64,000 nucleotides of DNA, taken from assembly GCA_051362555.1 (NCBI GenBank), contig CM120641.1, forward strand, positions 42,786,401-42,850,400. Reading direction: 5' to 3'. The notes under the pieces were generated by a model. The model was not told where the DNA came from and did no database searches. It saw nothing but the letters and a program-made list of their open reading frames with translations. Of this stretch, positions 11,174 to 61,200 are shown one piece after another. Every line of letters starts with the position of its first letter. Position 1 is the first letter of the stretch. This DNA is from Lingula anatina (Eukaryota; Animalia; Brachiopoda). The translations under genes and the position numbers were made by a program.

Positions 11174-14100
11174 ATGAAATAAAGGATGAATTAATCTTTA
11201 TCGACAATGTTGAGAGCGCGTCCGTAAATGTATCTCTATGTATTGTATGTGGAGGAAAGGTTGAGGCAGTTCTAAGCATGGCCATATTGAATGTTTCAGG
11301 CGTGCCAGACAACAAAGGGACCGAATTCGTCCTCGTTTTCATTCAGCAGCACAAAGCTCTGCTGACGAACGGGAGGAACTCGCTGTACGTCACCAGCGAT
11401 GAAGCAACTAATGTGACGATCGAAATACCCAGCATTGGTAAACTTTCTATAAGTTTTATTTCTTTAATTTAAAAAATGTATACGTGCATGTTTAGAGGAT
11501 TAGGCTGAAAAAAAAGAAAGAAAGCGCTTATTGTCACTTGAAAAATGGAAATCAGTTGATACAATAAATATCAGTAGGTACGATACAAACGAAGATGTTG
11601 ACTAAAATTCGTCAATTAATGATTTTTATCTATTAATTTGCAATTTAAAGTGCACGCAACAAGACCTGGATTGAATGCAAAATAGACGCGTTATCTTTTT
11701 TACTTTCTAGGCTTTCATGAAAATTACGAGATTGAAAAAAGAGAATTAATTTCACTTGACTTCGACGGAAGCATCCGGTTCCATAACGGGACCGAGCTTG
11801 CACACAAGGGGATAAGCATCCGTTCTAGTAACGAAATCTCGGTTTACGGCCTGAACAGCATCAAGTACACAACGGACGGGTTCCTTGGTCTTCCCATGGA
11901 CATACAAGCCTACGAATACGTGGTGCCTTGTTACACGCCGCAGGGTAACGCTCTGGTCGCAGTGGTGGCAAACGAAAATGATACCAACATCGCAATAAAA
12001 ATCAAAACCCCAAATGGTACGGTGACGTTTAACAACAAAATGTATGGTGACGGTGACTGGTTAAACGTGACTCTTAATCGACTCGATGCGTTCCAGCTTG
12101 CTCACTTTGAAGACTTAACAGGGACGCGCATATACACCGATAAACCGTTATCTGTGTTCTCGGGAGGGGACTGCTCCTATATTCCACCTGGTATCAAATT
12201 CTGTGACCATCTCGTGGAACAAATCCCCCCTATTAACAGCTGGGGTCGGCAATTTGTCACCATTCCTTTGGAAACGCGTCTTTCTGGCGACATTTTTAGA
12301 GTGTTGGCCGCTCACGACGATACCATCGTTCATTTTGGCCCGAACTTGAACGAGACCCTTCAGGAGGGAGAATTCTTAGAGGTAGACGTACCTTCTACGG
12401 TCTATCGGTACGTAACATGTTCTAACCCATGCCTCCTTTTACAATATTCCAAAGGCGGCAACGTAGACAACAATACCGATTCCGATCCCTTTATGCAAAT
12501 AATCCCTCCTATTGAACAGTACAGCGCCGAATATACTCTGTCAACCCCGGATGGGACGACGAGCACGAAGTTCCGAAGTTACATAGGTATAGTGATCGAA
12601 ACAAAGTATAGAAATGGACTCCGTCTAGATGGTCGACCATTAACTTTTGGACCGGGAGGCACGTGGACTCAAGTTGCGGGGACCAATCACTCGGCAAAAT
12701 CTGTGCGCATAAATCCTGGTACCCATACCATAGAGCATCAAGACCCCAGGGTCGTTTTCGCGGTGTATTTATACGGCTTTATGAAGGATGAATCTTATGG
12801 ATACCCAGGCGGTCTTCGGTTGGCCAATATTGCTGACGAATGCATTCCGAAAATTGGTCTTCCGGCGGACGGGATGGACAATGACTGTGATTACAGAATT
12901 GACGAGGAACTTGCTAATGGACTCGATGATGATGGAGACGGTGTCATAGATGAAGATCTTGCCGCTGCACCACCACGTCTAATAATCCCAGGTGACTACA
13001 GTGATCAAGTTTGTATCATAAACACCACGCCAGAGGAGACCGGGAGAGCTCGAGGTACAGTTGCACATAAATGTCAGCAAAGAGGAGTGACGTCCATTAC
13101 ATACACCGACACAGGCCTTTCGTCAACCGCGTGCGCGAAACGTTTGGTGAGGAAGTGGGAGTTGCGCGACGGGTGTGGCCACATAGTGAACGGCAACCAA
13201 ACCATAGAACAGCACATCAAGGAGCCGGTTATCCGATTTCCTCTCGACATAGACGTGTATATAAAATGTGACGAGTACCGTGCAGACTGGGAGAACAACG
13301 AAGTGCCCCAGGTGTTGGAGACATGCCCATATCACAACATCACCTTCCACAGAGATACGACAGCGGGTGTATGTGATGGTGAGAGAACAATGGTGCGACA
13401 CGTTAACTGGACGGCTACTGATCAATGTGGGAAGCGACAACACCACCTCCAAACGATTAACATCAACCCTCAAGGTTAGTGTAACATCAACATTCGTTAA
13501 TAAAACCTGTTCTTCTTCTTTGTAGAAAAATGTCAAATGTAGGCATCTAGTATGCATCATAAGATTATCCAGTATGAATTAGTAGTAAGAAATCTCGCCT
13601 TTTTTCAGTATGTTGTACACAGCTTTTAACGTTTTATGAAACCCGTTGGTGTCAAAATGTGGTGGTGCAATTTTCTTTGGTTTCTGCTCTCATGTGTTAG
13701 TTGAGCCAAGAGTGCGATTGTGTTTGGATGTGTTTTTTCAGCGTCAAACCAAATTATGGATGTGCAGTGTAATTCCGTACAATTGGAAGTGCAGGTGGAC
13801 GTGGCGAAATTAAATGCACAGTATGAGAACATAGATATGACGAGTTTAAGACTGCTAGACAGGGGATGCACTCCTTTTCGAAGCGGATCAAAGCTGATCT
13901 TCAACATACCACTGGGCGCATGCGGGACACAAAGGAAGGTAGGCCTACTCCTAATCTTTTTAATGAAAAATCAGAAGAAAGAATGTGCGTCTGGGTGTGT
14001 GTGTGGAAAAGAGTGTTCATTTAACATATGCAATGTTGTTGTACATATCTGAGTTTTCTGGTGCCCAACTTCTTTTACATCTGTAGGTTTCTCAAAAGCT

Positions 14101-17729: not shown

Positions 17730-20700
17730 CTACCTGGGCAACATGTCTTCCAAATCAGCTGTAACATAGGCCATCACAGCCCACACTGCAGAGCATAGAT
17801 CTAAACTATGGGAGTTCAAGACTGTCATTGTGTCACCTGAAACATGTTGAAAATTCAATGAACATTTTCTTGTAATCACTGGAGAATTTGGATGAAATGT
17901 AAATAAATACTGTTGATTATCAGTTATTTTATAGTAGGAGTGGCGCTGAAGTCCATATTTAGCTTGTATAGGATGTGTGATCTGCATGATATCCACAGAG
18001 ACTAAAGGAGAAAAAAATTCACGATAAAATTACATTTTTATAAAATTTCAAAAGGTGTACAAAACCTCAAATATTCTACTCTTTTTCATTACTAAAATCA
18101 CTGTGACAAAGCTGAATATGAAGCAATAAAGATGCAGATTCAAAGGTGAATCTACTTCAGAAATTACCTCTTTTTTAAACTCTTTCACTATATTACTTAT
18201 GATGCCTTACTTTCCCCTCACCAATTTTTCATATGTATCACTTGACAACCCAAATTTAGTAATTATGTAATTCATCATTAAACAATTTTATGCAACATTA
18301 AAAAATTGCAATCAAACTGACGAAAGATGATAGTGCATTACATTATACTATGACACCCCTGGCTTACCATTAGAATGATGAAAAAAGAAATATTTGTCAT
18401 TCTGTGTGTCAATGCTTGCGCCTGGAACATTGGACTGTGTCTGCCACTGGCTGACATCTCCACCATCAACTTTGTCTTTGAAGCGGGTTACCTTTGAGGC
18501 ATTGATGGGTTTCAGCAGGCTAGCCACCTTCTCCATTATTACTGCTGCAGAGTCACTGCCTACAATAATAATTATTCCAGTTTCTCATATACCCATTACT
18601 TGAAACAAATAATATCTTGAGATTCCCAAAAATGTGTGAAAATAGCTTACACTCTTGATACTGCAGTAATTTATCCAACTGAACCAGACAAATGTTAAAC
18701 AGTGATGCTGTCAAATCTATAACTGTGACATTGTTGTTCTTATCCATATATGAGCATTATATGTGCAGTCAGCCATGGCACCTCATAGTAGCATCCTAAT
18801 TAAAATGTGCTGGTATATTCAGCAAATGTTGAAAACACACAGACACACACACACACAAACACCAGTCATGTTAACATGTACATTACAGTCTTATTTTTAA
18901 GTGACTTAAAGATAGCTATGTAAAACAGAAATAAACATTCTTTCAGTAATGACAGCATATGAAGCAACACCATAAGACGGAAAATATTTCTTACCATGAA
19001 ACTGTATGCCAGTTGGGGTAAATGTGCCCAGGTCAGATTCCATTACAATATCATATTTGCTGGCATTGACCTGAAAGCCAGAGAGACTGGATAGAGAAAG
19101 AGTAATTTAGTCTAAAGAAAACTGTTCAATATGATTTTAAAATCAAAAGGGACAGGTATCAAAACAAAAATATGTGCTCAGAAGTTAAAAACGAATGACA
19201 TATTATAAACCAACCAACACATAGTCACCCAAAGTAACTGATGATATACACCTTGATTACAATATTGTATGAATACAATCTTTACATTAAATATAGCTGA
19301 ATGCCATCATATTAACGCGTGGTGTTGAGTAGAATAGAGACAAGGTGGTGATTATATGAGTACATTGGAAATAAGGGCTGTATTAATTAATTAATTAATT
19401 AATTAACTAAATAATCTGATTGCATTCAGTAAAAGTCCCTGTGGAGCTGGAATAATCTATGTAAATTACTAAAACATTAATTTCATAAAATCCTTGGGAA
19501 GGAGCCTTAAGACTATTTTTGTAACTGAATGTATGCCACATAAGTGTAGTGATATCCTAGAGATGAAACTCATCTTTCTATGAAGGTCCTTGTGTGTAAT
19601 TTGTGTATATTTGAGTTTTTCAGCTAAGGTTAAAATGAAACTTTGTAACACAAAGTCTGTGCCTGTCTCAGTGGAATTATGGTGAAAACCTGAATAGGAA
19701 CCTGTTCTCAAGAGTCTCACCTTGTGTGTGTTGTAGTAAGCTTGCCCTCCTATCACTCCTTCTTCCTAGAATTTATTATGAAAATGTTATAATTCAGTTA
19801 CTGCCATAGAAAAATTAGCAAATGTATGTAGATCATTCTAGGGTACCAGCTTTTGTCAATGTTAGTGAAGACTGTAAGCAGAAAATCAGGTTTTGGAAAC
19901 TGTATTCCATGCTGACATAATGCCATAGCGATCTGATCTGGATGGGTTCATGCCATTGGCCATTGCCAAAGTGTTATGGTTTGGGCAGGCATTAATAGCA
20001 ATTTTCAGATAGTACTCATGGTGATTGCAGTGACTGGTGGAAATGTGGAAAATGTGGACATCATATCATGGTTGTCTCATTTGGACAGGGGTCTTGCCAT
20101 TGACCACTGCCATGGGCACAATGTTATGGTTTGGGCAGGCATGAGTGGCAATTACCAGAAAGAACTCATGGTGATTGCAGTGACTGATGGAAATCTGACA
20201 GACTAGAGGTACAGAGATAAAGTCCTGAGGGTAGCTGTTATGCTAATGATTCATCAATACCCACATTGAACTGATATTTTGTACTTTCTTTATGTGTTAT
20301 ACGTATCTCTCAGCAGTTTCCATAACCTCATTTGAACAGCTATGCAATTGCTCATGCAAATTTCTTGTCCAAAAATTAACCCGTCTTCCCTCCAGTTTAA
20401 AAAGTCTTTTAAGTCAAGTAGCACTGCATGCACATAGTATAATCATCCCCCCCCCCCAATGTATTGATGTAATAGGAAAAGAGAGAATACCACAGGGATT
20501 ATGAAATTTATTAATTTCATTTATATCATATTTCCCTATCAGAAAAAAACAACACAATTTCAAAGTTCCTGGTTTAATTTTTCTGCCAAAATATCTTTTA
20601 AATATTATAATACTATTTTTCAAATATATACAAAAACACCCTTGTCAAAATTATGCCATTTTTGATTTAACATGCTACAAATATTTCAGTGTGCTTCTCT

Positions 20701-23700
20701 TAAGTTTCCACAAAGCTACTGAAAGAAGAGCATAAGCAGTAATGAGCAAACAGCTAACTGCCACCTTGTGAGCAATGACATCCAGCAAAAAGCATCAAAC
20801 ATTACAGATGGAATGCCAATAATATTACTCTATTCTGTAAATAGAGACAATAACCCTTCTCAAAATTATGCAGTTTTATATTTAACCTGCTGAAAATATT
20901 TTTTTATGCATCTCATTAGTTTCCACAAAACTATTGCAAGAAGAATATAACCAGTAATGCGCAAACAACCAACTGCCACTTTGTAAGCAATGACATCCAG
21001 TAGGAAGTACTGATACCAGTTTAAACTATAAGCTGCTTGGGAATGAAAGTGAAGAGGTCCATTGTGACGCATGGTGTAGTTGAGCCAAAATAAGAGTTCT
21101 TCCTGTCCTGACATAGGAGTGTCTCGCAAAATTAGTGAAATCTTCTTTGCATTTTCTTTGTAAGATTTCTTATTCAAGACCTTCCCAATGACATTTTCTA
21201 ACTTAGTTTCAGTAAGGGTTAGATAATCGAGGGGCACCCCAACTTGAACACGATCAGTCAATTTTCTAGCATGTTGGCGCTGATCCCAAAAGAGAGGAAC
21301 GGCCACCACAGGCACTGCATGGTACAGGGTCTCCCACATGCTGCTAACTCCACAGTGGGTGATGAACAGTTTAGTGGCTGGGTGGGCAAGAAGATCATTC
21401 TGTGGAAACCACTTTACCAGATAAGTATTGTTGCCTAGTGACTTTGGAGCTTTTCCATCATGGCGCCAAATTACCTTCTGGGGAAGCTTAGCAAAAACTC
21501 TGGCAAACACTTCTGCTTTTTCTTCTTCCAAATGTGGCACAATAGTTCCAAAGCTTAGTAGAATAACCCCATGAGTAGCAGTTGTAACAATGTCATTGAA
21601 AAACTTGGGCAGAGGTTTTGCTGGTGTCCAGAGGAGTCCAGAGATAGGTTTCACATGGGGCATGACTGGTCTGGGGTAATCTAAGGCAAAATGAACATTT
21701 GCAGCAATCATAAGAGAAACCCTCTCATATGCATGCTTCATGTGTGGAATATTTTCCTCTGGAAGATACTTTAATCTTAGGCCTTCTGCATAATCCATCT
21801 TATCATCCAGCCAACTTTTAATACTTTGTTCCACCTCATAATTGTGCAACCGTTCCCAAAAGTCCATATGGTCAGAGAGTCCAGTAGGAATGTTAGGGAT
21901 GAATGAATAAAACATTGGTTGATGAAAAATATTCCAAAAATTCCAAAAGCCATGATTCCAACTAGAGGATCAGAGAGGCGATACCGCCTCTGGATATTGT
22001 ACCACCAGCTGGAGTAAGCGCATTCGTATGGACCCCCCCCAAAAAAAAAAAAAAAAAAAAATGGACACCACCACCAGTCTTGTGCTTGACAAGCTCTATA
22101 AAATGCAATAAACAAGAGTTCTCAAAATATGAAAAAAAAAAATCAAAAAAACATAACAGTTAAAATGGTCCAATCAAGGAGATGTATTTTCCTAACACTG
22201 ATCACTCCTGTGATTTTCTAGACAATAGGCCTATTGGTTTTCCTTGAAATGCATTATCAGTAATGCATATACCGGAATGCTGACAAAAGAGAAAACCTAG
22301 GGACAACACTGGGCAGATCTCTGCTAGTTTTGAAGATATGAAGGGCAAGAAAATATGCAGAGTTCAGTTTGAGGTAAAAAAGTAGGTCAAAGGACAATTT
22401 CAAGGTCACAGTATATGACTTCCTATATAAGTTTAATAATAGCTATGGGCATTTCTTTGCCAATGTTGGAGATATGACGGCCAGGAAACATGCAAAGTGC
22501 AGTTCATCATAAAAAGTAGGTCAAAGGTCAATTTCAAGGTCACAGTAAAATTGCCAGTATATGACTTCCTATTCAAGTTCAATAGTCACTTTGGACCTAT
22601 CTCTGCCAGTTTTCGAGATATAAGGGATAGAAAATTTGCAAAGTTCAGTTCATGTTGAAAAGTAGGTCAAAGGTCAATTTTAAGGTCACAATAAGAATGC
22701 CAGTATATGACTTCCTATTCAAGTTCAACAGTAACTATGGGTGTATCTCTGCCAGTTTTGGAGATATAAAGGCTGGAAAATTTGCAAAGTTCAGTTCATG
22801 GTGAAAAGTATGTCAAAGGTCAATTTAAAGGTCACAGTTAGATTACCAGTATATAACTTCCTATTAAAGTTCAATAGTAACTATGGGTGTAACTCTGCCA
22901 GTTTTGGAGATATAAGGGCTAGAAAATTTGCAAAGTTCAGTTCATGGTGAAAAGTAGGTCAAAGGTCAATTTAAAGGTCACAGTTAGATTACTTGTATAT
23001 AACTTCCTATTCAAGTTCAATTGTAACTATGGGCATATCTCTGCCAGTTTTGGAATATTTAACATTTTCCCCACTGAATATTCATGTTGATTCACCGTAT
23101 AGATCTTGGTAATAATAGAAGTATAAATATTTTGATGCATCTAGAAAGATCTACATAATAGTTGTTGAATACAGTCCGAGCTTTCGGCCCCTGGGCCTTC
23201 TTCGGGGAATATGAACAAAAAGTAAAAAAACGTAAAAAAACAAACTCCATGGATACGTGACGTCGGTGATGTGTTGAAGACATGCGGTGGTCCAAAAGCG
23301 TGCTATACGTAAACAACGTCAAAATTACGTAACAAAGAAAAAAAATCAATACTCATTTAAAAAACCATTATCCCTATTGAGTCCATTATTCAAGGTGTTT
23401 AGTGTTCTTATAAATTTCTGTTCGGCGATCCGTCTTTGTCTAGTGTCGTTTAAGTTTCCTTTTAGAACGGTGACAGTGATGTCATTAACTGAGTGGTTCG
23501 GCGTGTTGAAGTGCTGTCCCACTGGTACGAAAAGGTTTTTGTTGTTAACAGTGCAGCGGTGGTGTCTAATTCTGTCTTTTAATTTCTGGCTTGTTTCTCC
23601 GACGTACATTTGATGGCATTTTTTACATCTTATCAAGTAGATGACGTTCTGAGAGTCGCAGGTGTATTTTCCCCTAGGGATGAGTGTCTTGCCTCCCGGA

Positions 23701-26700
23701 GTGATGATGGGGTTGTTAATAATACACGGGCAGAGAAGGCACCTTCTGTTGTTGCAAGGAAATGTGCCCGTAACGCCAAGGCTGTTATTGTTAACCAGGA
23801 GTTTTTTCAGATTAGGGGGCTGTCTGAAAGAGACGATAGGTGGAGAAGGAAAAATGTCTTTGAGCGTAGTGTCGGAGTCAAACATATGCTGCAAATCCCG
23901 CGCTATCCTTTTAAGGTGGTAAAGGGCGGGATTAAAGGTAACTACTAAAGGGACCCTTTCGTGGGTGTCCTTTCTTTGGTATTGGAGAAGATCTTTTCTT
24001 GGGATTCTATTAGCTTTACCCATGGTTTCTTTGATCATTTGTGTGTCATACTGCCGTCTTTCAAAAAGCTTTTGCAAATCTGTAAGCTGTTCACTCTTCT
24101 TTTCGGGTTCCGAGTTGATTCTATTATATCTTAAGGTCTGGCTAAACACAATGGATTTTTTGATGTGTGAAGGGTGAAAGCTGGTGGGATGTAGGTAGGC
24201 CGAGCGGTCCGTAGGTTTCCGATATACACATGTAGCCAGTCTATTGTTTTTTATAAAGACAGTTGTATCCAGAAAGTTTTGTTGTATGTTGGAATAGTTA
24301 AGAGTGAGGCGTATCGACGGGTTTTCATTATTAAAAAGCTCTACAAATTTTTTGAGGTCATCTTCTCCGTGTGTCCATATAAGGAAAATGTCGTCAATGT
24401 ATCGGACGTAGAATGTGGGTTGTTTTTGGGTCTTGCCTAGGACAGATTCTTCTAAGTTAGCCATAAACAGGTTTGCGTATTGAGGGGCCATTCTTGTGCC
24501 CATGGCCGTTCCTTTTACCTGCAAAAGAAACTCGTTTTCCTTGTCGAACTGGAAATAGTTGTGATTAAGTATGAAATCAGTAAGTTTTGTGATTGAATCA
24601 GGCTGAAGTTCGGTCTTATGTTTACTATTTCTTAAAGAATTTTCAAGTGCTTGGATACCATCTTGATGTGGTATGTTAGTATAAAGGGCTACTACGTCCA
24701 TGGTAACTAAAAGCGTATTATCGGGTAAATTTTCTACCATTTGGATCTTTCTTAGAAAGTCGGTAGTGTCCTGGATAAAACTCTTAGTATCCCTGACGAT
24801 AGGTTTAAGATCTCTATCAATTAACCCTGATATGCTTTCTGTAAGTGTGCCGATGCCAGAGATGATGGGTCGTCCGGGATTTCCTTCCTTATGGATTTTA
24901 GGCAAGATGTAAAAAATACCAGGTTTAGGATCAGTCGGTATCATTTTAGTCAGAAGCTGTTGGTCATTGTGTGGAAGCCCCTTAATGAGTTGATTCAGCT
25001 CTTTTTTGAAAGCGTTAGTAGGATCCGTATTGAGGTAGGAGTAGTACGCTTTGTCATTTAGTTGGCGGTATACTTCTGTGTTGTAGTCAGTTTTGTCCAT
25101 GATGACTGTAGCTCCGCCTTTGTCTGCTGGTTTGATGACGATATTTTTGTTTTCTTTGAGGGAGCGTATTGCCTGGCGTTCCTTGAAAGATAAGTTATAC
25201 AAGGACTTAAATTGTTTTCCCAGGATGTTGGACCTCATTCGGTGACGAAAACTTTCGATGTATCGATCCAGTTTACTGTTCCGGCCAGGTGGTGGAGTCC
25301 AGTTTGAAGTTTTCTGTTTCGTGGTGAGGTTCTGTATATCTTGATGGTTGTCTTCTTTATTGTGGAAATATTCTTTGAGGCGTAATCTTCTGAAGAAATC
25401 TTCCATGTCTCCGCAGGTTTGGATAAAATCAAGTTTTGTTGTCGGGCAAAAGGATAGACCCTTGTTAAGTACGGATAATTCTTCTGTTGAAGGTCTGTAT
25501 GTAGATAGGTTGACTACAGTGCTAGTAGACGGTACGCTCTCGTCTTCTGAGATTCCCAGCGAACGTAATTTTTTACGCTTATTTTGGAGGTGGCGTGCGA
25601 TCTCCTTGTTGTATAGCTCTTTAATTCTGGTTTCAAGAGGATCTTGGGAATTAGTAATCATAGACTCTACTAGGGTTTCTATTTCTTGTTTAATCTTATT
25701 CCTGGTGTTGTATAATACATGAGTGAGGTGGTTACGTAATCTTGCTGCCGTTTTTAGCATGAGTTTTTCAGAAAATGAGGTCTTATACGTGTTCTGAAGA
25801 GGGTTCTTGATCCTAAGACCTTTGGGTATAATATTGTTCTTTTTGCATTTGGAAAGGAAAAAGATATCAGAATCAAGTTTGGCCTTCTTACTTACGTATC
25901 GTAGAAGTTTGATGTGTTCCGGTGTGTTACGATGCTGGTTGTCACTTTGAGGATTCATGTTGATTCACCGTATAGATCTTGGTAATAATAGAAGTATAAA
26001 TATTTTGATGCATCTAGAAAGATCTACATAATAGTTGTTGAATACAGTCCGAGCTTTCGGCCCCTGGGCCTTCTTCGGGGAATATGAACAAAAAGTAAAA
26101 AAACGTAAAAAAACAAACTCCATGGATACGTGACGTCGGTGATGTTTATGGCTAACTTAGAAGAATCTGTCCTAGGCAAGACCCAAAAACAACCCACATT
26201 CTACGTCCGATACATTGACGACATTTTCCTTATATGGACACACGGAGAAGATGACCTCAAAAAATTTGTAGAGCTTTTTAATAATGAAAACCCGTCGATA
26301 CGCCTCACTCTTAACTATTCCAACATACAACAAAACTTTCTGGATACAACTGTCTTTATAAAAAACAATAGACTGGCTACATGTGTATATCGGAAACCTA
26401 CGGACCGCTCGGCCTACCTACATCCCACCAGCTTTCACCCTTCACACATCAAAAAATCCATTGTGTTTAGCCAGACCTTAAGATATAATAGAATCAACTC
26501 GGAACCCGAAAAGAAGAGTGAACAGCTTACAGATTTGCAAAAGCTTTTTGAAAGACGGCAGTATGACACACAAATGATCAAAGAAACCATGGGTAAAGCT
26601 AATAGAATCCCAAGAAAAGATCTTCTCCAATACCAAAGAAAGGACACCCACGAAAGGGTCCCTTTAGTAGTTACCTTTAATCCCGCCCTTTACCACCTTA

Positions 26701-29700
26701 AAAGGATAGCGCGGGATTTGCAGCATATATTTGACTCCGACACTACGCTCAAAGACATTTTTCCTTCTCCACCTATCGTCTCTTTCAGACAGCCCCCTAA
26801 TCTGAAAAAACTCCTGGTTAACAATAACAGCCTTGGCGTTACGGGCACATTTCCTTGCAACAACAGAAGGTGCCTTCTCTGCCCGTGTATTATTAACAAC
26901 CCCATCATCACTCCGGGAGGCAAGACACTCATCCCTAGGGGAAAATACACCTGCGACTCTCAGAACGTCATCTACTTGATAAGATGTAAAAAATGCCATC
27001 AAATGTACGTCGGAGAAACAAGCCAGAAATTAAAAGACAGAATTAGACACCACCGCTGCACTGTTAACAACAAAAACCTTTTCGTACCAGTGGGACAGCA
27101 CTTCAACACGCCGAACCACTCAGTTAATGACATCACTGTCACCGTTCTAAAAGGAAACTTAAACGACACTAGACAAAGACGGATCGCCGAACAGAAATTT
27201 ATAAGAACACTAAACACCTTGAATAATGGACTCAATAGGGATAATGGTTTTTTAAATGAGTATTGATTTTTTTTCTTTGTTACGTAATTTTGACGTTGTT
27301 TACGTATAGCACGCTTTTGGACCACCGCATGTCTTCAACACATCACCGACGTCACGTATCCATGGAGTTTGTTTTTTTACGTTTTTTTACTTTTTGTTCA
27401 TATTCCCCGAAGAAGGCCCAGGGGCCGAAAGCTCGGACTGTATTCAACAACTATTATGTAGACCCCACTGAATATTGCGATGTTGTAATTTTTGATATAG
27501 CGCAATGCCTAAACCATATCGAAAAACAAAAAAATGGACACCACCTCCAGTATTGCACTTGACAAGTTCTACAAAGTGCGATGAACAAAAGGTCTCTGGC
27601 ATTTACCATTCCAGAATAAAGGCAAGTTTTCAGTTTCGGTATCTAATGGCTGCTTCTCCCGTGGAAATGCACCGATTGACCCCAAACTCCCAAAGATGAA
27701 AGGAGTCCCCAATTGTAACCCCTCACTGTAACAGGAGAGCTTAGATCTGTGTAGTTTCCAAAAAATAGCATAAAACAAATATTTTTTTGCAGAAAATTCC
27801 CATTTTTAGAAAATTTTGGCTTGTTTGACCTTGAAAAAAAGGTCAAAAGTCAAATCAAAGGGCATATTTGGAATCTCCACATATGACTTTCGGTCAGACT
27901 TCTGTAGTAATTTTTCCCATAATTCCTTTGGTTTGGGAGATATTTAGCCTTGAATTTTCAAAAATTTTGACAAGGGTGCGTTTCAACAAGTGTCACGCCC
28001 AGGCCAATGCACCGACAGAGACAAAAAAACCAGGGTGTTCAAGTTGAGATTATATGTGACCTAAATCCAGGAGATGGGGACACAGGTCCTGGCGGTCTAG
28101 GAGGAGAAGCGGTAACGGTGACTTGTTTCCGGCGCCCGACTGCGGAGCCGCAGGAGCCGGCGGAGCTGCAGGAGCCGGCGGAGCCGGCGGAGCCGGCGGA
28201 GCTGTACGAGACGGGTCGGGACTAAAACCATGAGTACCGCCAGCGTATACGCTGGTGGTACTAATAACCAACTGATGGCACTTTCAAATACTCATTAAGA
28301 AGCGCACCTGCTGCTATATTAAGGGTATCAAAGAAAAAAAGGGAAAAGTTCGAGTTTCTGAATTGCATCAAAGTATCAATATCACTGAACAGTTCGTGGC
28401 AAAGTAGATCATCAAGATCCTCCAATTGTTTTAGAGCAAGAAATGGGTCACGGTCAATGATTTCAAAAGCAGTCTGAAGATCCATCACACCACCTTTGTT
28501 AAATTCAGTTTCATCAATGTGAAATCTGATCAGTTTCACATCATGTAGGTCAAGTTTTGGTTTGTAATGGTCTGCAACCAGCATGGTAACCTCATGCCCA
28601 CGGTCTCGCAGCAAGATGGCAATCTTTTCCATATTCAATGTTCTTGAATTGAATATGTGGGTAAATGGAAAAACTAATATCTTTGCACCCTCAGAAACAT
28701 TTGCCAAAATAGGCAACCACAGTAAGTAAAATGCAAGCATTTTAAAAGTTGTCTTGCTCAGCAGAGAGCCCCTTATCAAACAGTACATAATCTTGAGAAG
28801 TTTACAGCTTTATATTGAAAATGCAACTTTATCTATCATACGGTAATGTCCCGTGGCTTCTGTGCAGAAGAAATTTACTAAAATTAGGAAAAGATTGTTT
28901 TGGTAGAAATTCCTGAAAGGGGAGGTGCTCAAAACTTCCAGACATTCAAATTTTATGAAATTCTGTTATTTTGGACCAGAAGTTGTCTGTTCACTTGGGC
29001 CTATGCTACTTTTTCCATACACTATCTGTGTCAGTTACCATATTGTACAAAAGGTAAGTGTAGGTAATTCCGAAAACTGTACATGCTTTCACATAAGAGT
29101 GTGGTCCAAGGTGTGAGGTAATGACTGGTGGAGTTGGCTAGCAACACAAAACAGCATCGATCATCACCATTGGGGGGGGGGGGGGGGGGGTTCATTAAGA
29201 TAACAGAGCTGCACTGTCCTGCTGGCATACTTTGCCTAAGCATTCGATCTGAGATAACGGGAGCTCTGAAGTAAGTGTTTCCAAGTTTCCAAGTTTGTTT
29301 TTCAAATATAATACTGGTAACCAGAAACTTGTGTCGTTTTTCAAAAAAGAAACTTGGTAACCAGAAACTAGTAACCTCCACCATGAAAGATGGGTACGGT
29401 GTTATGAGAACTCCTTGCTCTCCTGCACTGAGACCAAGATGACTGCCAATGGATGATTATGGTGCATAGAAAGCTGGGCAGGGTATTTTGGTCTCTCTCT
29501 GATGTAGGGGAGGCAAAAACAACACCCAGTCAGTGTCTATGTGCATAGGTGTAGCCTTTACTTTAGAAGCTGGGCAGAATATTACGGTCTCTTTCTGCCA
29601 TAAGGGGAAGCTGTAACGACCTCAGATCAGTCTACTACCCACAGGTAGTCCTTATCTCAGAAGCCTAAAGCTTGGTATTATGGCTGGTTATTATGGTCCC

Positions 29701-37488: not shown

Positions 37489-40375
<2,887 letters not shown>

Positions 40376-42969
40376 GAAGAGACATGCAGTAGCCTATTCT
40401 TCTTCTCTTTGTCTTAGTGTTAATGTCCTTTTTTTTCTGTCAAGTCTGAGATCTAAAGATCATCTTGCAACAGATATGCTTAAATAAACATAAATGGATA
40501 CTGACACAGAATAAAACGTGATGATCATTGCTTGGGAAATTTTAACAAACGTTTTTACTTCATTGTGGAATGATGGGAGAGCGTGAGAAGAAGAAACATT
40601 TTTCTTTAGGAATTAGAACTGGCTTCTTGGTTCAATTTCTGCAGTGTACCAATGGGGAAGACTGGTTTATGTGCGTGGATTGAACTGTTTAGCAGTTGGT
40701 ACAGTCTCTACTTTAAATGCCAATATATATAAATAATCTTTCTGTCAATTATGAAGAGAACTAGATTCTTCTCATTGAACATCCAGTAAGTTGAACTGAA
40801 AACTTCAAATTGTAAAAGTTTGAAGATGGACAAGAGACCACAGCGAACAAAAAAGAAATTAGACCGAGAGAAATATGGGACATTTTTTTAATGTACAGAC
40901 ACAGTGTGTCTGTAACTATAGCCATCTATGCCTGCTATGAACATCATTGTGCACTTTTCTCTCTAAACACTTCTCATTCTCAAACTTACAAAAATGATTC
41001 TTAGGACTAAAGTACAGCATGACTTGAAAACAAGCCTGATTGGATTCTTTAAGTCATGCAAAATTTTTGTTTTACACATAATTTTTTTAGCACTTTTAAA
41101 ATGTGGCCTTGAACATCCATGGGCCTGAAGTTTGATGTCAGTCAAATTTTCTGAATATCCATCATGTTACTAGAAGTACATAATTAAAATTTGTGGTGAT
41201 AATGTAACAATGCATCAACATTGACAAAAGCCCTTTTTGTGTACTGTCATCATTATTTTTGCTTTATGTCTGTACATTTGCCAGCTTTGCTGCCTAGCTG
41301 TTTCATTTGGACATAGCAGTCCTTTCATGAGAATTTGATTAGTGGGATCTATACAGTTAACATCTTCCCTATAAGGAAGTTGCACGAAGGTAGCAATAAG
41401 TATCCCTGGGACTGACGCATGAGAATGTAACAAGACCAGTATTGTTACAATATCCATATATAGCAATGCCTGCCTTTGCTGACACGGGCCCGTTGCTCTT
41501 ATCAGATTTATTTAAAAATGATACTTCATACCTATTTATGAATTTACACTAGGATGTCTGCTAAAGCAGGATTTGCAACATTTTTAACAATGACTGTAAT
41601 TGTTCTCCATCTCCCATATTGAAAGAAATAAACATTTATTTCACCATTTCCTTTGTTGTTTTAGATTAAATCAGGACGTCAAGTTCCTGTTTTTTTTTGA
41701 AATATTCCTATTTTTTATTTTCTTGGAAAAACCCTACGATTTTCTATTTTTGGTCAAGATGTTATGTGTCAAATTATGTTGGTTATGGGAAAGTAAAATG
41801 TGGCTCCATATGTCAATATTGAACTATCTATAAAGGTTTGGAGAAATATGGCAAAGGTATTGTGTTTGGACCTACGTGCCCTGTTAAAATACAGTGCGAG
41901 AAGGTCAGAAGATACCCCAAAACTTAAGTTGACCTTAGACGTTTAGATTCCTACATATATGGAACTCGCTGAAATCCGTTGGCTTAGGATCAAACCTCGA
42001 CCTGCTGTTCAAGGTATTTTTGAACAGTGGGATACCAAATATGCGATTTCTCATCAAAATGCTGACTTATTATGAGATTGAAGAAAGCTCCAAAACATAT
42101 CCACTGCAAAAAAGGAACAGCTTCAACGACGGGTTCGCTGAAACAACGGAGATAACTACACTTTATTGCGGAAGAAAATAAATACTGAATGGCCAATTTC
42201 CCTATATTATTTATAGTATGTGAAATTTTGATTTTTTAGTGCAATTTATCTTTATATACTAAATAGTTTTCTAAGAAGGTGTAGGAAGGATAGAAACCTT
42301 TGCAAACTTTTATAAATGTTAACTTTCGTGCATAGGGCAATAAAATTGGTAGATTCGTGTAGTTGGTTTGTAAAGAATTTGATAATAGTCGTTCATCCCT
42401 TACTGCATTAAATAAGTAGTTCTACTGACTGAGGAAAAAACGGGAAGGGGGTTACCACCAGAATATCAATTTGTGGTTTGTTTATGAGCCTGTGCTTAAT
42501 AGAATAGCGTAAACCATAAAATCAGTGCCCACAGCAATTTTGTAGGCTAAATTTATGCTCAAACCCTTCCTTTGTTAGAATTCTAGTTTAATCAACAATG
42601 TCTCCAAAAACCCAACGCCTTTCATATTCCATTTCTTTATAAAGATTTCCTCCAATTTTAAATTTGTCATTGTATCATATAGGATCCAATGATTTTTCTA
42701 TCTTGTTAGCGTGTCATAACATCTTTCCAAAAGTGCTTACTGCAGTCATCAAGCTTATCTCAGTATTTCCAAAAACAAATATATTACTTATATATCGATT
42801 AAATATAGATTAGAGAAGTGGGGCGTATGTTATAATATAGCTTGGAGAATTGGGGCGCATGTGTTACCTGTCAGATAAGTTCTTCTAATTAAAGTAATAT
42901 GATAATGATGATATATTTATCCAGGAGATCATAACATCTTTCCAAAAGTACTTACTGCAGTCCTCAAGC

Positions 42970-43540: not shown

Positions 43541-45706
43541 AAAATTGACGTAAATATTTGAATTAAGTACCGGGTCTAAAACATTATTAAAACCTCCACA
43601 GATAATAAAATATTCTTTATTAACGCTCAGATAGAAATCCCTTTTTGTGCGGCGTCTGTGCGAAGGCAGACGGTGACCGCAAGGAATTGTATGCAATGGA
43701 TTCACGGCCTCCGTAGCCTGTACGTATTGTACAGCAAAAAATTTTGACAAACTTTGAAAATCGTAAGCCCGTAGGCCGTGCGATAACATCGCACAGTTCC
43801 CGTACGGGCATCGTTCGGTGGACTTGATTATGGTCGAACCAGTTTCATTCCCTTCCAATATAAGTGGTTTCAGGAGACATTACGACAGGAAAAATGGCTT
43901 TGCGAAGTGTGCAAGTTAAAGAGGTGGGAGGTAAGATAAAGTTTGAGAGCTTCGGCATCACGTTCGGCCGCAACGGTGGATGCGCAAACTGGTTTTTACA
44001 CTTTTGGGGGTCTTTAGCATAGGCCTAACTAATCCGTAAAGAAGAGTGCATGTCTTTTACACATGAATTTCGCGCTAATGTAAGAGGCCCATATACATTG
44101 GCGCTTGCCAAACCCATATTCCGCATACAAACAAGATTACGACAAGGCAAAAAGTTATTTTATTTACCACGTTAATTCATGAGAATAAGAATAAAACATG
44201 TTAATTTGACTTTCGTACTCTGCTCGGGCTGCTGGTGGGCCAACGGCAGGCATTCCGTTAGGCCAACGTTGGCATCAGTGGTTGCCACCCTTTGCCACGA
44301 GCTACCTGCAAAGTATTGTAACGTGACTAGGGTACGATCAAATTAAAAATACCATGGGTTAGAAGAAAATCAAAGATAAAAACCTCAATCTTTATTCAAC
44401 GGAAAACTCAACTTAAAATAAAGTAAAACAATGGTTCAAAACAGAGTCTCTGTTTTACCATGGAATCAAGCCTTCAGCTTTGAATTATACGCAAATAGAA
44501 TAGTGATCCGATCTATAACGGTAAAACGAAAAGTACTATTCAACGTAGACCACTTTTTACTTAGGGGCCATTCAGAATGAGAAGAGCCAAATGTTAGCTG
44601 GTCCACGGCCTAAATATGGCGGACCTACATGCAAGGAAGACCGCTTAATCCTTGAATGGTCTTTCCACCTCTTTTACGCCTCCCACGGAATTTCAGCAGA
44701 TCAACTTTGGCGTGAAGGGGGCCAAAGTGATAGCTATCGGAAAATTTAACAAAAAATACATAACTTCAAGAAAGAATGGTCCGTGAAAAGTGCACAGCAA
44801 TGCGGTGGGTTTCAATGACAGACGCTGGTGATGGCTATATGCCCAGACACACAGTCTGTCCATAAAGAGCCAACAACGGAAAAATAATGAAAAATCTTTA
44901 TTTTTTGCAGTATGAGTGATGTTGAACAATCGCAGGAATTTTACACAAAAATAAATGGTGCAAATCCTGCTGTAACAGATATACAAGTGTGTAAAGTTAA
45001 GAAGTATATTTTTTTCTCTTTAAATAAACATGAAGAGCATTTGGCCTCCGATTTACAGTGTCAAGCACAAAAAAAAGGCATTGCAGAATCTATACATGCC
45101 TCTTTGTCACTGTCTAATGTTTATTGCTACCTTCATGCATTTTCCCTTTATCAAAGGCAGCACCTTTATAAATCTTTCAAATGAAAAGTTAATGAAACAA
45201 CGAATTATCATTTGGACAGTAAACGGCAATTATGACAAAACCATTTCCCCGTTTGTGTTGTTTCTTAGTGTTTGTAATTGCGTATCAAACTTAAAAAGCA
45301 TTTGCAATCATGTGTTTTCAGTTATTGCATGTTCCAAGACTAGAGGATAGATATCCTTCATAGCTCACACAATTTAATTACATTTTGGCATATAAGTGTA
45401 ATTTATACCAAAAGACAGTGAAATGTTATGACATGTTCATATTTGGCATTGTATCCTAATTTTTCCATTGCATACAAATGAATAAAGAAACTAATTCTTT
45501 TGTTTCAATTGTTCCTCCCCTCTCCTATCATTTTAGTGTAATTCAGTTCTTTGTCAAAATTTTGAAAGCAATGATGATGTCTATCCCTTTTCTCTGTCTG
45601 TATCCATCTTTGTATATAGTCGACTTTATCTGGCTTAAGATTTTCAAACATTAAGCCAGACATTAACGCTGAAAGAGTAGAAGGGTGGGTTGCTGTAAGT
45701 CTTTCC

Positions 45707-48585
<2,879 letters not shown>

Positions 48586-49875: not shown

Positions 49876-54430
<4,555 letters not shown>

Positions 54431-56327
54431 GAAGAGAGACATGCAGCAACTCATCCTTCTTCTCTTTCTTTCATCACGTATGTCCCACTGTGCTGTCAGA
54501 CTCAATATTTGAAGATCATTTTGAGGCACATAATCTAGACTCTACAAGGAAGACTACTGACTGAGTAGGACGTGATTATCATTGCTTGGGATATTTTAAC
54601 AGAGGACTTACTTTATCATAAACTAGAATGAAGTGCTAACTTTGGGAGGGGGGGTATGTCACTTAGGGAACTAAAACTGGCTTCTTGTTTCATTTTCTTT
54701 GAAGCATAGACTGGGATACAATAACAGTTGGGAAGACATTGTTTGTCAAGTTTACTGTGTGGCCTCTGAGTTCATCTTTTTATGCCAATATTTATTTAAT
54801 TCTATTGTAAGTTATGAAAATAATCAGTCCTCTTGTCTTGGAACATGCAATGATTTCAACTTAAAATTGAGAATCTTTGAAATTTGAGTTGGCAAGCAAA
54901 CTCAAACATAAACATACAAAAAACATTTGTTTTATCATTGTTGTAATCCAAGTAGTAATCCTTTATTTCATGAACATTTGATGTGCAAGATCTATAAAGT
55001 TGCTGCCACTGCTAGGAGGATAGTGTTGGAAGGTAACAACTATAGTAGTTCCGAGATTCACGCATTCAATTGTGACATGACCAGCATTGTTACAACATTC
55101 ATATTTAGCAATGCCTGCTTTTGCTGACATTTCATATTGAAGGCCCATTTTGTTCCTTTTCAGGTTTACTTAAAAGGTAAAATATAATAATTCATACCCA
55201 TTTATGAAGTTGTGTACACATGGATGTCTACTAAAGCAGGGTTTGCACCATACTATATGTGTAAAGATGCCTGTAATTGTTCTTCATCACTCATATGACA
55301 AGAAATAAACATTTTCATTCTTTTTGTTGTTTTTGTTGTTCCAAAAACTATAAATGTGATGAAACCCATGAAGCACATGTATCACAATGTTAGTCTAAAA
55401 TATGCACAACTCCTGTTGGATCTTCAGCATCTTGGAATGTGCAAGTGTTACCTGGTACTTCTGGTGGGTTCATCAAAGTGGTGAAATAACAGTAATTGTT
55501 TCCAGTAATCTTCAGTTTTTTTCTGGAACTGATAAATTCTGCTTGTCTATTCCAAATATTTGCTGATCATTGGACTGGTTTTAAAAGGATAAGAAGGTGC
55601 ACATAAATATGCGAAATTTGAGTAGAATGTTCACTTGTCTGGGGTAGCTTATTCGGGCCCATAAGCAAAATATCAATAAAAGAAATTACAACAATTATCC
55701 GTTTGAATATATTTGGTGATTCGTGACACAAAATGTTACGCAGACATAAAATTACCGAGAAACTATCAAAGTGAAACGGGACGGGCGTTTGCCTTTATAT
55801 TGCTTGCATTAGTTGCGGTTCACAACTGACACAATATTATGTGCTTGGAATCATTTTCTAAAAATTATCTTATATTTCACACAAACTTTGTTACCACTTT
55901 TTACTGAATACATGTATTAAATATGATAAAACTTAAGAATAAAATCATCGATGTATTTGAATTTATCAAAAATATGAGAAGCAGGTTTCCTTCGAAACTA
56001 AATTACAATACTCAGGGTTAGCTAGCACTACGACTATTGAGATTCTGATTGACGCGACACGGATCCGTTGTAGCTATGGTTGTCGTTGTTTAACTTTAGT
56101 TATCCACCTTTGTGCTGGGTTATGTGATTATGGATTGAATAATTTCGACACCAGAACAACCTATAGACAGGATAAAGAAAGCAGCGGTTTTTGTTGAAGG
56201 AACAACCAGTTGAAATACTTCGATTAACGCAAAATATTCTCTCGACTAGTCCGACTGGTTCACTTTCAATATCGACGAAGAAACTGAATCGATGTCTGAA
56301 TCAGAATAATGAGCGTGGTAGAGGATT

Positions 56328-58206: not shown

Positions 58207-61200
58207 CTGATGAGGGGAGAGTGGTAACCAAGAAAACATTTTTTATAAAATCATATAACTTTAAGATGCATATTAAGAAAATAATGACTAAAAGAATTTG
58301 TATAAAAAGGAAAATACATAAAGTGGTAGAAAGTAACTAAAAACATTAGTTTTGTTGAAAACTTTACTTATTTGAGTGCTTTATCATAAATTTTGTATTT
58401 GATTAACCTTAAAGTCTTTATAAAGTTTGAAAAATTCACAGAAGTAGTAGCAGATTTTAATAATCTGATTCTGTGACATATGAAAAAATAAATTAGACAA
58501 TGCATATCAAGATCTGGGATATTTATTTCTTTTATGTATGTTGTTTTGCGGCAGTAATTAACTGTAATGTTTAGCACGTGACTATGAACCTGTCCTAAAT
58601 GAGAGAACAGTTGTGTCAATATTCACTTGGCTTATACTCACAAAGATCTGCATATGTACAAGTCATCAAATGTTCTTATAATGATAAACCTGAAAGCAGC
58701 AAGCTCATGGTGCCATTTTCAGTTCAATTGTTAAAAGTTGGAATTTGCTAAATCAAATTTTTGTGCGAACAGTAAGAGGAGAAATTGTTTGCAGTTTGAA
58801 CTCAAATTTCCTTCCTTGTTTATACAAATACATTCCCCCCACATACATAGTAGATTTGTTTACTAAATCACCTGTAGATAGTCAATAAAGGCATTATTGC
58901 CTAATAGCAATGGGGAAAGAATTGTTTTATATGTACCAAACATGCAGACTAGTTTAGTTGGCGGATGGAGAGGTGTTTTTTGAGTTGTAGTTTTATCTAA
59001 ATAATTGTATAAATGAAGTTTTTTGGTCCATTGACTTAATTAGAAGTAGGTTTTTGATCATTTTTCTGTTATATATTAAAAACAATAATGTCATAAGTAA
59101 TATCAGTTGATTTTGACACAAATGTTTTGCCCATTTGTTGAAACTTTACAAATTTGAGTGCTTTATCATAAATTGTGTATGATCAGTCACAAATCAATAT
59201 TCTAATAGGTGCTACTACTATTACCTTTCAGATTTTCATTTTTGACTCCCAATTTTTCCTTTTTAGATCACTGAATGTTAATTGAAGTTTTATCTGCCAC
59301 TTATTAGAAAAAACTGATTAGGAAAGAAAAAGTCAATTCAAATACTCTACTCTCCTGAAAATATCTTTTGACCTAGTTTAGTTTACTAAAGAGTTTTTTT
59401 TTTTTTTTTTTTTTTTGACAGCTATGATGGAGAAGCTGTCACAAAGGTTGCATATTTGAAAATGAAATTGCTGGTCAAAAGGACACCCTGTGCAGTGAAC
59501 TGTTTGTGGATGGATAGGTTTCATTGTTTTATGATGTCTCAGTCACAGGACAAATGCGAAAGTTTTATGCATGCATGTCATTTTGTAGGATGAAAGAGAA
59601 GTAGAATAAAATATTTATTATCTATCTTGTTTCACCAAAACATTAATTATGGATTTGCTTTGGAAATGTTTGAAACTGGATCGCGTTCAAAAATTTAAGG
59701 ATTGAGAATAAAATAGTTTTCAACTTGTGTTCAAAAGAATGTTAGATACTAAAGGAAGTTTGCATGCCAGCACATGCTTGCTATTATACTGGTGATTTTT
59801 GTGTGTATGTAAAAATTGACCAAACCTGACCAAACAAAATGATCAGGCATGTTTTTAACACTTCCTTATTTAGTTCAATAGAAGGTTGCATACAGACCAG
59901 GAAGTATAAACTCTACAATTTTTACATAATTGTATTTACCACCTGCTTAGTAGAGTGTGTGATACAACTGATGATAATACAGATGATAAAGGACATAGCC
60001 GTAGACACACCAGCTTGTTGAAAATACATGCTGTCAGGTGATGCCTGCACCCATCTAAATGACCACATCCATCTAAATGACAGTTCGTTGGGAAAAGCCT
60101 CTACTGTTCAAAATCAATGTTGTGAGTAAAAATCTGAGAATGATTGCATTATTGAGAGATTTTCACTTGTGACACACCCGAAAAGCTGTTCTACAATTTT
60201 AGCTTTTAAAAGTATGTAAACATTTAAAACTGAATGTACCTGAATTTAGAAATATAGGAAGCTCTAGCTGACTTCAGATGCTAAAATCAATGAAATGTGC
60301 AATAATGTCATACTTTTACTTAGCACCAGAATTGTACTGGTGATTATTGTGTGTATTTAAGGCCAAACAAAATGATCAGGTATATTTTAAACACTTCCTT
60401 ATGTTGTTCCGTAGAAGGTTGCATACAGACCAGGAAGTATAAACTCTGCACATTTAATGTCTACAATTTTTACATAATTGTATTTACCACCTGCTTAGTA
60501 GAGTATGTGATACAACTGATGATAATACAGCTGATAAAGGACATAGCCCTAGACACACCAGCTTGTTGAAAATACATGCCGTCAGGTGATGCCTGCACCC
60601 ATCTAAATGACCGCATCCATCAAATCTAAACAGTTCGTTGGGAAAAGCCTGTACTGTTCAAAATCAATGTTGTGAGTAAAAATCTGAGAATGACTGCATT
60701 ATTGGGAGATTTCCACCAAAGACACATCGGAAAAGCTGTTCTACAATTTTAGCTTTTAAAAGTATGTAAACATTTAAAACTGAATATACCTGAATTTAGA
60801 AATATAGGAAGCTCTAGCTGACTTCAGATGCTAAAATCAATGAAATGTGCAATAACGTCATACTTTTACTTAGCACTTGATTAAAAAATGTAAAACACAG
60901 TTGTAACTGTGTCCTTAAATGAATTTAAAACTGGGTTTAAAAAATTCAAATATTAAACCTTGAATTGTTCCTGTTTTTTTACCAAGCCTTAATTTGTCAC
61001 CACCACCAATTTTAACACAATTTTTTTTTGGGGGGGGGGGGTGGGGGGGGGCAAACACCTGGACAGAGCTGCATCTTTTAAAGTGTTTCAGTGGTGTGCC
61101 TATATGAATAATAACAGAATCTGCCTCTCTCCCACGGGAAGAAATATGGATTGATTTTTACAGCCCACTGATTGCAGCTATAGAAATTTTACCTTTGGAG

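Follow-up and report, generated by a model that had tools for sequence, protein, structure and literature searches.

A probably recent and likely null Helentron insertion in a UGT gene of the brachiopod Lingula anatina

Non-autonomous Helentrons of the HINE type are defined by subterminal inverted repeats (subTIRs) of at least 11 nt, located 2–4 nt from the 5′ end and ~38–60 nt from the 3′ end of the element, together with an inverted repeat at the 5′ end, a palindrome or hairpin at the 3′ end, and T-rich or TT targets that are not duplicated; they are interspersed in many copies and often contain central tandem repeats (PMC4067079). Rolling-circle transposons of the related Helitron type are also known to generate introns. 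A survey of such introners reports Helitron-type families in Suillus subalutaceus (fam5 and fam6), Nemania serpens (fam1), and Polarella glacialis (fam15), with 4–49 copies annotated as introns; the Helitron2-like Suillus fam5, ~1.5 kb long and bounded by GT-AG, is said to 'carry both' splice sites (PMC12130899). The four RC/Helitron rows viewed in that survey come from two fungi and a dinoflagellate, none from an animal, and its supplement file 7 gives 0 introner families for L. anatina, under a screen that rests on annotated introns and at least four copies. Here, we describe a Helentron that interrupts a UGT gene within a 64,000-nt stretch of L. anatina DNA (contig CM120641.1, positions 42,786,401 to 42,850,400), hereafter the window. 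An initial annotation proposed that this element may act as a new intron and that its family may generate introns, a mechanism of a kind already known and for which a published negative exists in L. anatina (PMC12130899). The locus is probably better read as a recent, likely null Helentron insertion in one of several close UGT paralogues.

The UGT start codon lies at 28740 on the minus strand and opens a single coding stretch, which the element divides into two halves:

28265–28740, minus strand: 5′ half of the UGT coding sequence, residues 1–159 (Pfam PF00201, E 1.7e-6)
20866–21961, minus strand: 3′ half of the UGT coding sequence with the stop codon (Pfam PF00201, E 8.9e-86)

Both halves are open frames matching Pfam UDPGT, free of stops and frameshifts as first described. 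Excision of the 6303 nt from 28264 to 21962 yields a 523-aa UGT with G-Y-W-N at the join, whereas a GT-AG intron of 6300 nt from 28261 to 21962 would yield a 524-aa UGT with G-Y-Y-W-N, that is, with one additional Tyr. These junctions, coordinates, and translations reproduced exactly those of the initial annotation. In unspliced RNA, a TAG stop follows residue 159 directly, at the element junction. The two closest L. anatina UGT paralogues both read G-Y-W-N at the insertion site, which supports the reconstruction of the empty site, made at the protein level from paralogues rather than from a DNA-level empty allele. Since they are only 86–87% identical to the reconstructed protein, these two UGTs are likely paralogues, not alleles of the interrupted gene, and it is possible that they offer redundancy. 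Among the best 120 of 1264 homologues (hits of 200–637 aa), none exceeds 90% identity; the product of the interrupted gene may be missing from the annotated proteins. The top homologues are L. anatina UGTs and for a neighboring gene an L. anatina protein gives a 99% match covering 39% of the query, placing the window in L. anatina or an extremely close relative. Just downstream of the gene, positions 20601–20785 hold a partial duplicate of the UGT 3′ end (79%) with an early stop, a decayed relic of a tandem duplication.

The interrupting element has the complete anatomy of a HINE:

21962–28264, minus strand: non-autonomous Helentron (HINE-type), 5′-TT...CTAG-3′, 6303 nt including a nested Penelope and ~1.9 kb without it
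28262–28264, minus strand: opening three bases of the element, left in the mRNA if the GT-AG intron were removed (one extra Tyr); in unspliced RNA, these bases and the one that follows complete the TAG stop
28251–28261, minus strand: 5′ subTIR, 11 nt, 3 nt from the 5′ end, opening with the proposed donor GT
28234–28244, minus strand: short inverted repeat, able to fold with the 5′ subTIR into a hairpin (-11.4 kcal/mol, DNA parameters)
28142–28202, no strand assigned: 9-bp minisatellite-like repeat, 6.8 copies, differing in length among family reads
22409–23058, no strand assigned: central tandem array of a 146-bp unit, 4.5 copies, 87% matches
21999–22009, minus strand: 3′ subTIR, 11 nt, perfect complement of the 5′ subTIR, 37 nt from the 3′ end
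21969–21995, minus strand: 3′ hairpin (-8.1 kcal/mol), whose 3′ arm comprises the pyrimidine tract and branch-like motif
21962–21965, minus strand: terminal CTAG, the proposed splice acceptor
23083–27462, minus strand: nested Penelope-like retroelement

The subTIRs, hairpins, array, and CTAG end bear out the original call of a Helentron insertion. The subTIRs form a perfect 11-nt pair at 3 nt and 37 nt from the 5′ and 3′ ends, and an inverted repeat at the 5′ end is matched by a palindromic hairpin at the 3′ end. The insertion lies between A and TT, its flanks differ, and there is no target-site duplication; most RNA reads that leave the 3′ end of family copies likewise continue with TT into mixed, T-rich flanks. 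The mixed flanks of these reads and a relic at 52914–52987 mark the family, with its central 146-bp array, as interspersed and multi-copy. Assigning the A at 28265 to the element was rejected for this site, as the G-Y-W of the paralogues requires that base. A 75-nt direct repeat (84%) has one copy by each end of the Helentron, at 27522–27596 and 22049–22123. An exact search of metagenome contigs with a 24-nt pattern of the 3′ end returned 0 matches.

Compared with HINE and DINE-1-like elements (PMC4067079), including the oyster Cg_HINE (PMC7492417), the Lingula element shares the 11-nt subTIRs, the 5′ inverted repeat, the short repeat near the 5′ end, the central array, the 3′ hairpin, the T-rich target, the absence of a target duplication, and the lack of coding capacity of its own. 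It differs in its ends, 5′-TT...CTAG-3′ between A and T, which resemble those of proto-Helentron-Pi with its Helitron-like ends (PMC4067079). The Lingula copy differs further in holding a nested Penelope and in the strong sense polarity of the family's transcripts, of which the literature searches found no account.

The nested element, whose structure we take to be Penelope-like, bears out the statement that the Helentron had acquired a second transposon. Its open reading frame (ORF; 23346–25958) is intact, encodes 870 aa, and combines reverse transcriptase and GIY-YIG domains, identified by profile matches. An inverted copy of its 5′ part (26143–27462) differs at 1 of 1320 positions, and the 14-bp target duplications at 27463–27476 and 23069–23082 are identical; on these two grounds, the Penelope insertion is very recent. 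A single ORF with both domains, a terminal direct repeat, an inverted 5′-truncated copy, and a 14-bp target duplication are all as in Penelope-like elements, and nothing about the copy is unusual. The element at 23083–27476 is possibly still active.

The case for an intron rests on the fit between the element ends and the reading frame. It is true, as claimed, that a GT and the terminal AG lie within the element's own ends and keep the frame: the boundaries are canonical splice dinucleotides, 3 nt are left behind, and these encode Leu, Ile, or Tyr depending on phase, never a stop, such that one codon is added in any of the three phases. Given the CTAG end, the chance of an in-frame GT by the 5′ junction is 16% (3 offsets) to 37% (8 offsets). 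The terminal AG is part of the end with which the family transposes, and the GT in frame with it likely arose by coincidence. The donor itself, GTACCA at 28261, was acknowledged from the outset to be weak and matches the consensus at 3/9 positions; 57% of the 7205 GTs in the window match better, as do 10/20 of those upstream in the 5′ exon. Of the host-like splice sites expected of an introner, the acceptor here is acceptable and the donor (3/9, against a general consensus) is not. The hairpin between the 5′ subTIR and its partner at 28234–28244 is predicted to mask the donor as well. Two further sites compete with the proposed ends:

28302–28310, minus strand: cryptic donor of higher score within the UGT exon (GT at 28307, 6/9), 46 nt upstream of the proposed donor
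28096–28098, minus strand: rival acceptor-like AG (28097) with a pyrimidine score equal to that of the terminal AG

Joining the 28307 donor to the terminal AG would shift the frame and end the protein at 205 aa. Three 7/9 donors lie inside the element, within the Penelope (25895, 24518, and 26674), and a second upstream acceptor with an equal score lies at 23824. The intron span also takes in the intact same-strand Penelope ORF and an AATAAA at 25361. Of the pyrimidine tract and branch-like CTGAT previously noted at the 3′ end, the tract is good; it lies in the stem of the 3′ hairpin, and just 9 nt separate the branch-like A from the end. Reading the element as an intron is unsupported: the donor is weak and has stronger rivals, the frame fit has a chance of 16–37%, and no junction read was seen in runs where the gene is nearly silent. 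Neither intron action here nor an intron-generating family has positive evidence, given the weak donor, the missing junction (at low power), the failure of the homologue search to return a matching full-length protein, and the 0 families listed for the species.

Under the preferred reading, rolling-circle transposition would have placed a copy of the Helentron at an A^TT target so recently that neither half of the gene has had time to decay. Most transcripts of the interrupted gene are predicted to meet a translation stop at residue 159, to end inside the element, or to be spliced to CTAG from stronger donors (28307 in the exon; 25895, 24518, and 26674 in the Penelope), all with a truncated protein as the predicted outcome. 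The persistence of two intact halves is expected if the insertion is recent. Stop-making changes make up 4.5% of substitutions in the UGT coding sequence, and under assumed indel rates a dead coding sequence of 1572 nt would stay intact with p 0.82–0.87 at 0.1% divergence, 0.14–0.26 at 1%, and 0.02–0.07 at 2%; heterozygosity in L. anatina is 1.6% (PMC4595640). By these probabilities, the caveat that intact halves could simply reflect a recent insertion is the better explanation. On this most likely reading, the locus is a further case of a transposon inserted into an exon, here in a gene family that has expanded.

Several points weigh against this interpretation. Donors were scored as matches out of nine to a general consensus not specific to Lingula, which limits the argument from donor strength. 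By pyrimidine count, the terminal acceptor is good, in the top 2.3% (top 2–3%) of the 7284 AGs in the window, and in maize the 3′ CTAG of a Helitron was shown by rapid amplification of cDNA ends to serve as a 3′ splice site (PMC10095026). The maize element likewise presents its terminal CTAG in sense downstream of a promoter; its donors lie inside the element, whereas inner donors in the Lingula element would keep the premature stop. From the age of the Penelope, no more than a minimum age of the Helentron insertion follows. The extra Tyr would fall where a strand gives way to a loop and may be tolerated: in a structural model of paralogue P0002 (mean pLDDT 92.5; ~90 at the site), strand 120–124 has the site as its final residue, and the adjoining loop varies in length among mammalian UGTs. 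The UGT protein departs from columns 85% conserved at 6 positions, in each of which both close paralogues also depart; no conserved residue has been lost privately, and the protein hence bears no sign of decay by this comparison. N389H and P387R in the nucleotide-sugar motif were considered as such signs and rejected, as other Lingula paralogues carry H or varied residues there. Finally, the RNA runs neither support nor refute splicing, because the halves were mapped separately, coverage is near zero, and the animals that supplied the RNA may not carry the insertion.

The RNA evidence comes from eight (all but X3) of nine runs chosen by their L. anatina species label, with 6–30% of each read. 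The 5′ half was compared with runs X1, X2, X4, and X7 at 95% likeness, and the 3′ half with X5, X6, X8, and X9 at 90%. Depth over 28305–28579 is 0 in all four of the former, with ~1 read further upstream in X7. Over the 3′ half, depth is at most 5, many reads carry 3–10 differences, and the bin 21860–21909 is empty in all four of the latter. No read in the eight runs crosses the junction in either form, spliced (28262–21961) or from an empty allele, at a locus that is near-silent in them and whose halves were sought in different runs. No loose ends with UGT sequence appear among those listed, each of which requires 3 reads. Joints at 28119–28217, toward the element's 5′ end, were rejected as splices; they are length variants of the 9-bp repeat and not GT-AG.

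The strongest rival is a leaky new intron at this locus only, in which a useful share of transcripts would be spliced from 28261 to 21962 and encode a functional UGT of 524 aa that includes the additional Tyr. We regard it as unlikely. The exact in-frame GT-AG, the good acceptor with its maize parallel (PMC10095026), and the two intact UGT halves, divided at a strand end modeled with pLDDT ~90, are all consistent with it. Against it stand the 3/9 donor within a predicted hairpin, the stronger rivals that break the frame, the branch-like A at -9, and a 6.3-kb span that includes an intact same-strand Penelope ORF and the AATAAA at 25361, as well as the lack of a junction read at low power. The extra residue also has no precedent among homologues: 109/120 have exactly 10 residues over positions 152–161, 0/120 have 11, and the remaining 11 sequences show gaps or misalignment in this stretch. 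Splicing at the junction, if it took place, would make the locus a nascent animal intron derived from a rolling-circle class for which the table consulted lists introners only in fungi and a dinoflagellate (PMC12130899).

Alternatively, this UGT copy may have been silent or dispensable before the insertion, which would then have been neutral, spliceable or not. Near-zero reads on both halves in the eight runs fit this account, many of them with the 3–10 differences expected of paralogues or distant alleles, as do the two close paralogues and the decayed duplicate nearby. The 1572 nt of coding sequence, however, carry no disabling change apart from the element, and the near-silence was seen in the 6–30% read of each run, from unstated tissues; we consider a copy already silent quite improbable.

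Beyond this locus, RNA reads from the ends of family copies reveal a pronounced strand polarity. At the 3′ end, 433, 391, 902, and 855 reads in the four runs compared there continue past CTAG-TT with a flank agreement of 0.40–0.42, a diversity that in a rough simulation needs ~20 or more evenly, or 50–200 unevenly, expressed loci. Reads at the 5′ end stop matching the reference after 28265 or 28267 and pass into mixed flanks (agreement 0.43–0.56, ~5–20 even loci). Taking the last matched letter as the place of departure, these reads suggest a (T)TA^TT-like target for the family. The flanks are T-rich on the sense strand of the element and look non-coding. The ratio of sense to antisense reads is 526:15 (X5) and 547:35 (X6) at the 3′ end in stranded runs, and 245:2 (X1), 316:1 (X2), and 38.5:1.1 (X4) near the 5′ end; runs behaving as unstranded give 644:676, 600:620, and 64:67. 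The sense direction was fixed by UGT reads in X5 and X6, X4 belongs to the same study, and X1 and X2 were oriented by general strand convention. Across the five stranded runs, 94–99% of family-end reads are element-sense. The initial annotation had called for a search for orientation bias among exonic copies; a sense bias is indeed present in RNA, from copies whose flanks look non-coding rather than exonic. At both element ends, hundreds of family reads continue unspliced, although this approach would miss any spliced products from other loci.

Two side observations concern variation within the family. Variants at 21993 and 22015 are carried by ~76–89% of reads in X5/X6 and are near-absent in X8/X9, which suggests that runs sharing a species label differ in population or in subfamily. 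In X1, X2, and X4, one strongly expressed subfamily carries a sequence of its own at 28095–28200 and 27686 (agreement 0.93–0.99).

Several causes of the polarity can be weighed. An internal promoter could account for the 3′ reads, not for read-in from upstream flanks. Poly(A) tails or oligo-dT capture are unlikely, as on the sense strand both the flanks and the long run within the element are rich in T, and dominance by a few loci was rejected by simulation for the 3′ end and less firmly for the 5′ end. Four candidates are insertion into the single-stranded non-template strand, the T-rich target acting together with strand skew, selective loss of antisense copies, and RNA turnover. Helitron transposase cuts only single-stranded DNA and favors transcribed genes (PMC4778049). 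The antisense strand of the host Helentron carries ten 6/9 donor-like sites and two AATAAA, compared with four and none on the sense strand. The one other family copy in the window, a degraded 5′ fragment at 52914–52987 (58/75 identical, 77%), likewise lies in gene-sense orientation in an intron of a plus-strand gene whose structure was read by eye. Should the polarity reflect the direction of insertion, it would reveal the way in which a transposase acting on single strands locates its target in a eukaryote; should it reflect selection or RNA turnover, it would imply a strong filter on one orientation.

An orientation rule alone, by which the family inserts on the non-template strand of transcribed genes in gene-sense, comes close to an even chance in our judgment. 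The fuller proposal, in which exonic copies are also spliced out and survive as an animal Helitron-type introner, appears very improbable. Helitron introners are of the same rolling-circle class with a terminal AG; here, there is one known exonic copy and no splicing was seen. It is highly improbable that exonic copies in sense orientation are, across the genome, regularly removed by splicing between the subTIR GT and the terminal AG, with one residue added each time: ends that add one codon in all three phases, the sense polarity, and the Helitron2-like Suillus subalutaceus introner with both sites would suit such a family, whereas the survey, which needs at least 4 annotated copies, gives 0 families in L. 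anatina (PMC12130899), and the flanks read are T-rich and non-coding-looking with element ends retained, and only one exonic copy is known. Literature searches, with subscription papers mostly outside their scope, found no description of strong sense polarity for Helentrons or of any Lingula Helentron. The word 'helitron' is absent from the available main text of two Lingula genome papers, one of them PMC4595640, and the available parts of PMC13286980, PMC4224331, PMC1181806, and PMC4778049 contain nothing on Helitron orientation bias. What is new here is the sense polarity of the family reads and the ends that add one codon in any phase.

Elsewhere, the window contains three close paralogues of a ubiquitin-conjugating E2, presumably UBE2D-like, at 38170–40640 (plus strand), 44870–47780 (minus strand), and 52580–55330 (plus strand), with similar exons and partly similar 3′ regions. 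Positions 11686–13479 encode a single-exon IgGFc-binding domain of 597 aa, followed by exons matching a ZP-domain protein of L. anatina. A 548-bp tandem duplication (89%) and a pair of 227-nt inverted repeats 1010 nt apart, resembling a miniature inverted-repeat transposable element, occupy 59783–60876 and 51042–52505, respectively.

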